Source of the DNA: a virus
Reading direction: 5' to 3' (one strand)
UHGV virus genome: UHGV-0205323
Length of the DNA stretch: 26,989 nt
Shown: in pieces, positions 6,792-8,751 of the stretch
How the letters are laid out: every line of letters begins with the position of its first letter
Numbering within the stretch: position 1 is the first letter of the stretch
Program-made: the position numbers and the translations under genes
The notes under the pieces: model-generated
The model's input: the letters and a program-made list of their open reading frames with translations, nothing else
Database searches by the model: none
Told to the model about the DNA's origin: nothing

Positions 6792-6959
6792 ATGCACTTC
6801 CGAGTTACAGGTGAATGGAATGGAGAACCATTCAACAGAGTTATCGAAGCCGAGAACATCAGCGACTGCTATGACCACTGGATGCTGTGGGCGCAGATAG
6901 CACATGCAGACGTAACCAATATTCGAATTGAAGAACTGAAAGAACACCAAGCCGCCTGA
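6792..6959 (+). CDS. small ORF (55 aa), hypothetical
   Basis: GGAGATGA RBS upstream of ATG 6792; flanked by terminator-like hairpins on both sides; translated by hand (MHFRVTGEWNGEPF...). Confidence 0.4.
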   Translation: MHFRVTGEWNGEPFNRVIEAENISDCYDHWMLWAQIAHADVTNIRIEELKEHQAA

Positions 6960-6973
6960 TGGCGGTTTTTTAT
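6951..6973 (+). terminator. putative rho-independent terminator overlapping stop of the 55-aa ORF
   Basis: GCCGCC / GGCGG(T) stem with TGAT loop followed by TTTTTTAT. Confidence 0.55.
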
Positions 6974-7016
6974 TGCCTGATTTGCAGGTTCGATTCCCTA
7001 TTCGGAGATAGCACTC

Positions 7017-7217
7017 ATGCAACACGAACTACAGCCTGATTCACTGGTTGATTTGAAATTCATCATGGCCGATACTGGCTTCGGTAAAACCTTCATCTAC
7101 GACCGGATTAAGTCCGGCGACCTGCCAAAAGCCAAAGTTATCCACGGGCGAGCAAGATGGTTATATCGTGACCATTGTGAATTCAAAAATAAGCTCTTAA
7201 GCCGCGCCAATGGGTAA
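7017..7217 (+). CDS. xis: excisionase-like DNA-binding protein (HTH_17/AlpA-type)
   Basis: 66-aa ORF immediately upstream of the integrase; pattern ...DRIKSGDLPKAKVIHGRARWLYRD... resembles the excisionase/AlpA winged-helix family. Confidence 0.6.
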   Translation: MQHELQPDSLVDLKFIMADTGFGKTFIYDRIKSGDLPKAKVIHGRARWLYRDHCEFKNKLLSRANG

Positions 7218-7466
7218 AATAGCGGGTAAAATATTTTTCACATCTAAAAAACACCATTCTAATCAATCCCCTGCTGCGTCAAGTAGATGTCTGCAGGGGA
7301 CACCATTTATCAGTTCGCTCCCATCCGTACCAGTCCGCAAAATCCCCTGAATATCAAGCCTTCCGTAGATTCACAGTTCGTAATGGTTCGCGTCAGATCG
7401 TTGACAGCCGCACACCATGACGGGTAAAAAGTGGATAAAATAATTTTACCCACCGGATTTTTACCC
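7212..7466. repeat. cluster of GGGTAAAAW 9-mers in both orientations spanning the xis stop to the int start; candidate Int/Xis binding sites or attP arm sites
   Basis: GGGTAAAAT at 7212-7220 and 7224-7232; GGGTAAAAA 7422-7430; GGATAAAAT 7433-7441; inverted ATTTTACCC 7443-7451 and TTTTTACCC 7458-7466; an 8-bp inverted repeat TCCCCTGC/GCAGGGGA at 7267-7274 and 7293-7300 lies between the two groups. Confidence 0.55.
7401..7430 (+). promoter_or_regulatory. candidate int promoter overlapped by the GGGTAAAAW repeats
   Basis: Consensus -35 TTGACA at 7401-7406; weak -10 TAAAAA at 7425-7430 (18-bp spacer); no experimental support. Confidence 0.3.
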
Positions 7467-8624
7467 ATGCTCACTGTTAAGCAGATTGAAGCAGCAAAGC
7501 CGAAAGAAAAACCATACCGCCTTCTCGATGGTAATGGCCTGTACCTTTATGTCCCTGTATCAGGGAAAAAGGTATGGCAGCTTCGCTACAAGATTGACGG
7601 TAAGGAGAAAATCCTGACCGTCGGAAAATATCCGCTTATGACTTTGCAGGAGGCAAGGGATAAGGCATGGACTGCGAGGAAAGACATCTCGGCTGGCATC
7701 GATCCGGTAAAGGCGAAAAAGGCTTCGTCTAACAACAATTCCTTTTGTGCGATTTACAAGGAATGGTACGAGCACAAGAAGCAAGTCTGGTCAGTAGGCT
7801 ATGCAACTGAACTTGCCAAAATGTTTGATGACGACATTTTACCCATCATCGGCGGTCTTGAGATTCAGGATATTGAGCCGATGCAACTGTTGGAAGTAAT
7901 CCGCAGATTTGAAGATCGCGGTGCAATGGAGCGAGCCAACAAAGCACGCAGAAGATGCGGCGAGGTTTTCCGTTACGCTATTGTCACCGGAAGGGCTAAA
8001 TATAACCCGGCACCTGACCTTGCTGACGCCATGAAGGGATACCGCAAGAAGAACTTCCCGTTTCTTCCTGCAGACCAGATCCCGGCATTCAACAAAGCAC
8101 TGGCAACATTTTCAGGAAGTATCGTATCGCTCATTGCGACCAAAGTTTTACGCTACACAGCCCTAAGAACGAAAGAGCTTCGTTCCATGCAATGGAAGAA
8201 CGTCGATTTTGAAAACAGGATTATCACTATCGACGCCAGTGTGATGAAGGGACGCAAAATTCATGTGGTTCCGATGTCGGGCCAGGTAGTTGAACTTCTC
8301 ACTACGCTAAGCTCCATCACTAAACCAGTATCAGAGTTTGTTTTTGCCGGGCGCAACGATAAGAAGAAGCCAATCTGCGAGAACGCGGTATTGCTTGTGA
8401 TCAAACAAATCGGCTATGAGGGTCTGGAAAGCGGTCACGGATTCAGGCATGAATTCAGCACAATTATGAACGAGCACGAATGGCCTGCTGATGCTATTGA
8501 AGTGCAACTGGCACATGCCAACGGCGGATCTGTACGCGGGATTTACAACCATGCTCAGTATCTGGATAAGCGCAGAGAAATGATGCAGTGGTGGGCGGAT
8601 TGGCTTGATGAAAAGGTGGAGTGA
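7467..8624 (+). CDS. int: tyrosine integrase, P4-type (DUF4102 N-terminal domain)
   Basis: N-terminus MLTVKQIEAAKPKEKPYRLLDGNGLYLYV...WQLRY typical of P4/CP4-57-like integrases; C-terminal catalytic region with HGFRH and conserved R/H/Y context; start placed at ATG 7467 rather than the track's 7431. Confidence 0.85.
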   Translation: MLTVKQIEAAKPKEKPYRLLDGNGLYLYVPVSGKKVWQLRYKIDGKEKILTVGKYPLMTLQEARDKAWTARKDISAGIDPVKAKKASSNNNSFCAIYKEWYEHKKQVWSVGYATELAKMFDDDILPIIGGLEIQDIEPMQLLEVIRRFEDRGAMERANKARRRCGEVFRYAIVTGRAKYNPAPDLADAMKGYRKKNFPFLPADQIPAFNKALATFSGSIVSLIATKVLRYTALRTKELRSMQWKNVDFENRIITIDASVMKGRKIHVVPMSGQVVELLTTLSSITKPVSEFVFAGRNDKKKPICENAVLLVIKQIGYEGLESGHGFRHEFSTIMNEHEWPADAIEVQLAHANGGSVRGIYNHAQYLDKRREMMQWWADWLDEKVE

Positions 8625-8643
8625 TCCACCTTGACTATCGAAT

Positions 8644-8700
8644 GGCACAAAGCCTTGCAATCCAGTGCAAAGCTTTGTGTGCCTCAGTTTTGTCTCATTA
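8644..8700 (+). terminator. putative terminator / structured element downstream of int
   Basis: Long imperfect hairpin GGCACAAAGCCTTGCA / TGCAAAGCTTTGTGTGCC followed by T-rich TCAGTTTTGTCTCATT; a separate perfect 8-bp hairpin AAGGTGGA-GTGA-TCCACCTT (8613-8632) spans the int stop codon. Confidence 0.45.
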
Positions 8701-8751
8701 TTAAAATAATTCCGTCAACCTCACTACCTTCATAATATTGAATTTTTTTAA

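Follow-up and report, generated by a model that had tools for sequence, protein, structure and literature searches.

In the window, meaning the whole stretch of 26,989 nucleotides that was analysed (UHGV virus genome UHGV-0205323), the segment 7194-7490 is very probably (we put it at about 95%) the attP of a P22-like (Lederbergvirus) coliphage carrying the IntS/TorI module known from HK620, Sf6, CUS-3, and the KplE1/CPS-53 prophage of E. coli K-12. The segment lies on the + strand and comprises a P arm, a core, and a P' arm. A sequence-only reading of the same DNA had proposed the xis-int spacer as attP, and the proposal is borne out: the spacer is 99% identical to the attP of HK620, and the attR and attL halves of KplE1 overlap on a 16-nt core at 7291-7306. 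The outer limits are those of the KplE1 attR and attL primers, since the primers listed in section 3.6 of PMC3509656 map to 7194-7213 (no mismatch) and 7467-7490 (one mismatch). A 220-bp attL and a 135-bp attR were enough for excision in vitro with IntS, TorI, and IHF (PMC3509656). Because the primers of these excision substrates map there, the functional attP is bounded at approximately 7194-7490, and both repeat copies of the P arm are included.

The xis-int segment taken as a whole (1.85 kb) is 96-97% identical to HK633, N7, HK620, Sf6, and other phages, and the spacer alone reaches 99% identity with both HK620 and Sf6. Coordinates of the HK620 record AF335538 were converted to the window by adding 5449 to the locus coordinate. 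On this scale, the attP repeat regions annotated in HK620 map to 7211-7233, 7421-7442, 7442-7467, and 7835-7845, its attP core to 7291-7306, and its int gene to 7467-8624. The Sf6 annotation (AF547987) places the attP core identically, at 7291-7306. Over its full length, the window is a mosaic P22-like (Lederbergvirus) coliphage, of which a single phage record covers at most ~55%.

The two genes flanking the spacer belong to the same module. The xis gene (7017-7217, + strand) encodes a protein identical at 66 of 66 residues to K-12 TorI, the recombination directionality factor (RDF) called HkaC in HK620. Since a Pfam search of the 66-aa Xis gave no hit, its identity rests on this 100% match to TorI. 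Excision requires TorI (PMC2951348, PMC3509656). The int gene (7467-8624, + strand) encodes the equivalent of IntS, with 381 of 385 residues identical to the K-12 protein; it is a tyrosine recombinase with two kinds of DNA target, arm-type and core-type. Pfam assigns to Int the domains Arm-DNA-bind_3 (residues 2-86), Phage_int_M, and Phage_integrase. The int start is the ATG at 7467, as opposed to the GTG at 7431 given in a mechanical list of open reading frames.

The arms of the attP are marked by the 9-mer GGGTAAAAW, which has six exact matches in the window where 0.31 are expected, a count reached by none of 100 dinucleotide-preserving shuffles. The sequence-only reading had counted six copies within 255 bp. 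Five of them stand as exact matches inside 7212-7466, and the sixth is found there only if one mismatch is allowed (GGATAAAAT at 7433-7441, + strand); the remaining exact copy lies within int (7836-7844, - strand). The layout that had been described, with two direct copies at the xis stop and four arranged as nested inverted pairs, matches the exact positions. The two direct copies at the xis/torI stop both read GGGTAAAAT on the + strand (7212-7220 and 7224-7232), are 12 bp apart, and are the same in the K-12 attR, the first of them overlapping the TAA at 7215-7217. The int-proximal copies run as two forward, then two reverse. The first, GGGTAAAAA at 7422-7430 (+ strand), is an exact copy that overlaps the -10 of the int promoter and corresponds to the IntS arm-type site P'1. 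The mismatched copy at 7433-7441 lies over the transcription start and would be P'2, judged by the order of the sites. By the same order, GGGTAAAAT at 7443-7451 (- strand, in the int leader) would be P'3, and GGGTAAAAA at 7458-7466 (- strand) would be P'4, the latter ending one base before the ATG at 7467. Both P-arm copies are covered by the attP repeat_region of HK620 at 7211-7233 of the window. IntS reportedly footprints both of these copies. That IntS binds the P-arm copies at 7212 and 7224 in this phage is suggested by the HK620 annotation and by their presence in the functional attR substrate. A search of 7000-7500 with the strict IHF consensus (WATCAANNNNTTR, also WATCAR) found nothing.

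The int promoter, PintS, occupies 7401-7430 on the + strand, with the -35 TTGACA at 7401-7406, an 18-nt spacer, and the -10 TAAAAA at 7425-7430; transcription starts a few nucleotides past the -10, at ~7436-7439. The KplE1 attL likewise holds PintS (-35 TTGACA, -10 TAaAAa), with starts determined by primer extension (PMC2951348, Panis et al. 2010), and our placement of PintS relies on this published mapping. From the -10 to the int ATG, the sequence is identical to that of K-12, and a 'prophage excision' promoter annotated in HK620 maps to 7401-7450. A generic sigma-70 scan did not call PintS because its -10, TAAAAA, is without the final T. The promoter-proximal copies of the 9-mer cover the -10, the start site, and the leader. 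They do not lie over the -35, as the sequence-only reading had it, since the -35 is located 15 bp upstream of the first of them.

The proposal that the 9-mers serve Int as arm sites and overlap its promoter is borne out by the KplE1 module (Int 99% identical, RDF identical), for which four P' sites are published. IntS arm-type sites P'1-P'4, the four listed in Table 1 of PMC2951348, share TAAA, and P'1 overlaps the -10 (PMC2951348). Autoregulation of int, which had been suggested as well, is also published for this module, PintS being repressed approximately five-fold by IntS, with a similar effect of TorI (PMC2951348). Repression persisted when P'2, P'3, or P'4 was mutated singly, and P'1 is inseparable from the -10 (PMC2951348), so that a role in autoregulation is only partly shown for the individual P' copies.

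Five TorI sites are described in KplE1, I1 and I2 being 12 nt apart and I3, I4, and I5 being 2 nt apart, with the motifs GTTCG, GTCCG, and GATCG; mutating I4 or I5 abolishes repression by TorI (PMC2951348). Both blocks, which the sequence-only reading had missed, are found on the + strand of the window. I1-I2 (7311-7338) consists of CAGTTCGC at 7311-7318, 12 nt, and CAGTCCGC at 7331-7338, with the published 8+12+8 spacing. I3-I5 (7374-7401) consists of CAGTTCGT, TGGTTCGC, and CAGATCGT separated by 2-nt gaps and abuts the -35; its 8+2+8+2+8 layout and its GTTCG/GTTCG/GATCG motifs agree with the published description.

One could also take the GGGTAAAAW repeats as operators for a regulator other than Int, either the RDF or a host protein, with the Int arm sites lying elsewhere. 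In favor of this, the elements they cover (-10, start site, and leader) are those expected of a repressor operator, and TorI too represses PintS. However, the TorI motif differs (GTTCG, GTCCG, GATCG) and sits upstream of the repeats, while the TAAA P' sites have been assigned to IntS, and the changes that alter IntS binding map to P'1 (PMC2951348). Moreover, Int has a dedicated arm-binding domain, and the presence of repeats in both arms fits an intasome rather than a simple operator. We consider an operator for another regulator very unlikely and retain the assignment of the repeats to Int.

The attP core, CTGCAGGGGACACCAT at 7291-7306 (+ strand), has its sole exact match in the window at this position. 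It corresponds to the last 15 nt of the argW tRNA-Arg(CCU) (argW positions 61-75) plus one T, and it is shared with attB. The duplicated 16-nt core of KplE1 given in PMC2951348 is the same sequence. The sequence-only reading had suggested aligning the region with host tRNA 3' ends and with the attL and attR of integrated prophages, and it is this comparison that locates the argW core at 7291-7306. The core includes the right arm of the 8-bp inverted repeat that the same reading had pointed out, and was itself not spotted then because it is merely a 15-nt fragment of a tRNA; an ARAGORN search over the window found no tRNA gene. Around the core, an imperfect inverted repeat is formed by GATGTC (7286-7291) and GACACC (7299-7304) on either side of TGCAGGG (7292-7298). 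It is built like a 7-bp overlap region bordered by two core-type half-sites, a reading that we infer from the sequence. A 46-aa ORF (7210-7350, + strand), homologous to HK620 hkaB and Sf6 gene 17, spans the attP core. Integration would split this ORF, and its status as a real gene is doubtful.

Integrated copies of the module break at the core. In an ungapped comparison of the window with K-12 KplE1/CPS-53, anchored on the core 16-mer, near-identity to the K-12 attR (torI side) extends as far as 7306 and ends there, while near-identity to the K-12 attL (argW/intS side) sets in at 7291; outside these limits, the sequences are unrelated. Some match to the xis-int query occurs in 2875 of 5426 complete E. 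coli genomes. Among the matches listed, those with a tRNA-Arg beside intS all (23 of 23) start at query position 342, which is 7291 in the window. The predicted empty site was built as 300 nt from the left side of the K-12 attL, the core, and the right side of the K-12 attR. This reconstructed attB is found at 100% identity over the 300 nt in E. coli genomes, and at least 80% of the attB query is covered at a place in 912 genomes.

The junctions also bear on whether the attP might instead be placed past the 3' end of int, as it is in lambda or P22, which would put it within the 127-bp int-tailspike gap (8625-8751) and make the xis-int repeats merely a transcriptional operator. The sequence-only reading had preferred the xis-int spacer over this gap, and rightly so. 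A location in the gap would give the classical lambda order xis, int, attP, and inverted repeats are present at 8613-8632 and 8646-8679; however, no argW match of at least 10 nt occurs within 8625-8751, the lysogen match runs unbroken from 7291 through int to ~8698, so that the gap is no junction, and HK620 has a terminator annotated just downstream of int. A host-identical core 3' of int, as in lambda, was thus looked for in 8625-8751 and not found. We give an attP in the gap almost no weight and keep it in the xis-int spacer. The repeat at 8646-8679, just past the int stop, is a 14-nt inverted repeat (93% complementary, 6-nt loop) located roughly where the terminator of the excision transcript is annotated in HK620, and it was not called by a simple terminator scan. 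Furthermore, the 3' end of int and the beginning of the gap (8541-8698) are 89-94% identical to the otherwise unrelated lambdoid phages Gally, JEP4, and 434, which suggests a shared mosaic boundary sequence.

The arm repeats are also preserved in a more distant relative, the Klebsiella phage vB_Kpn_Chronis, which shares ~77% identity over the matched stretch of the xis-int segment. Chronis keeps the position and orientation of all six arm repeats. Its forward copies are, in order, GGGTAAAGT (at 7212), GAGTAAAAT (at 7224), GGGTAAAAA, and GAGTAAAAC (at 7433), and those on the opposite strand are TTTACCC and TTTTACCC, giving an arm-repeat consensus, Chronis included, of about GRGTAAAR. Chronis has likewise retained the -35, all five TorI motifs, and the greater part of the core, while its spacers diverge. 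One might suppose that the cluster arose by chance in an AT-rich promoter region, as the motif is A-rich and the copy at 7836, outside attP, does look like chance. This is hardly credible, since six copies arose in 0 of 100 shuffles and their position and orientation are kept at 77% overall identity.

The copy within int is a seventh one, an exact GGGTAAAAT on the - strand at 7836-7844, and HK620 labels it as an attP repeat (7835-7845). We do not accept it as functional, for three reasons: in K-12 intS (ATTTTACCT) and in Chronis (ATTCTGCCG) it is disrupted by synonymous changes and so is not conserved as DNA; it lies outside the 220-bp attL that is sufficient in vitro; and a single stray copy is compatible with chance. 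It is probably incidental.

HK620 (AF335538; Clark et al. 2001) and Sf6 (AF547987; Casjens et al. 2004) have the same repeats, core, and promoter and the same hkaC(xis)-attP-int order. The present phage departs from them only by scattered point substitutions, few in number, within the spacers, and elsewhere its genome is mosaic. Between int and the tailspike, it has no O-antigen modification gene, as in HK620 and unlike Sf6. KplE1/CPS-53 (Panis et al. 2007, J Biol Chem 282:21798; Panis et al. 2010; PMC2951348, PMC3509656) shares the core, P'1-P'4, I1-I5, and PintS, with IntS 99% and TorI 100% identical. However, KplE1 is integrated and defective, its att being split into attL and attR, whereas here an intact attP is carried by an apparently complete phage genome segment. 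The satellite phage P4 likewise has its int promoter inside the att region, and its Int and RDF lower int expression, but P4 Vis was proposed to act on the int mRNA while TorI binds DNA at the -35 (PMC2951348); integrases, cores, and target tRNAs differ between P4 and the IntS/TorI module. The lambda attP (an intasome of Int, Xis, and IHF) is alike in its use of a tyrosine recombinase that recognizes both arm-type and core-type sites, in having arm sites in both arms and RDF sites between its core and one arm, and in its short core shared with attB. Unlike in lambda, the attP is located here between xis and int, so that the two genes become separated on integration, and int regulates its own expression.

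Module identity, core, arm breakpoints, and motif positions were established here by sequence, while binding and repression come from the literature on near-identical DNA and proteins. We infer from the near-identity of the KplE1 and HK620 DNA and proteins that IntS and TorI would bind and catalyze in the same way in this phage. The N-terminal domain of IntS would recognize GGGTAAAAW at the two P-arm and four P'-arm copies, and its catalytic domain would act at the 16-bp core CTGCAGGGGACACCAT (7291-7306), where strand exchange would take place. Because the core is the 3' end of the host argW, integration would rebuild the tRNA. After integration, the P' arm and int would form attL beside argW, and xis and the P arm would form attR. 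The predicted attR is the window up to 7290, the core, and then CCTTGTGTTT toward dsdC; the predicted attL is argW ending in CTGCAGGGGACACCAT, followed by 7307 onward. TorI would direct excision by binding its five (C/T)(A/G)G(T/A)(T/C)CG(C/T) sites, which lie between core and int promoter. Since the P' arm contains this promoter, the -10 would be occluded by IntS at P'1, leading to autorepression, and the -35 by TorI at I4 and I5. Excision by KplE1 is confined to a narrow range of IntS concentration (PMC2951348), and the dual repression may hold Int at the low, narrow concentration needed for recombination.

The 8-bp inverted repeat with an 18-nt spacer noticed in the sequence-only reading is real and consists of TCCCCTGC (7267-7274) and GCAGGGGA (7293-7300). 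The hairpin it forms (7267-7300, + strand) has two stems, an outer one of 8 bp and an inner one of 5 bp, folds as RNA with -21.3 kcal/mol (z = -4.8), and is retained in HK620, in Chronis, and in the K-12 attR. On its 3' side, it consists of the 3' strand of the tRNA T-stem and acceptor, followed by CACCA, so that the whole resembles a tRNA minihelix. Just upstream of xis/torI, the 16-mer TTGCAGGTTCGATTCC at 6982-6997 (context 6973-7010) is an exact copy of argW positions 46-61 (T arm), which directly precede the tRNA segment that forms the core. We roughly estimate that a 16-mer match of this kind would turn up anywhere in the window with a probability of ~7.5e-4. The T-arm copy is found upstream of torI in HK620, Sf6, and KplE1 and is absent from Chronis; it lies inside the region annotated in HK620 as the cII-dependent 'integration' promoter. 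Immediately before the annotated pI/cII site, a strong intrinsic-terminator-like hairpin (6949-6972; GCCGCC...GGCGG, then a T run) is located at the end of a 55-aa ORF (6792-6959). We consider it unlikely that the hairpin at 7267-7300 and the T-arm copy at 6982-6997 are more than relics and together mimic, in two pieces and with a function of their own, the 3' half of argW. At the RNA level, such a mimic could serve the processing or 3'-end formation of the xis/torI transcript by tRNA-maturation enzymes; at the DNA level, it could be an extra core-type site for IntS or a secondary att site.

The attP described here is already known, having been in GenBank since 2001 through HK620, and the KplE1 module was dissected between 2007 and 2012. 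Earlier publications already cover its architecture, the arm sites of Int, and the way in which IntS and TorI both repress int, and the present analysis adds no new biology to them. It serves as a positive control, the attP and the autoregulation having been inferred correctly from the sequence alone. For this phage, the gain is one of annotation: its attP, the core, the start codon of int (ATG at 7467), and argW as the integration target are now fixed.
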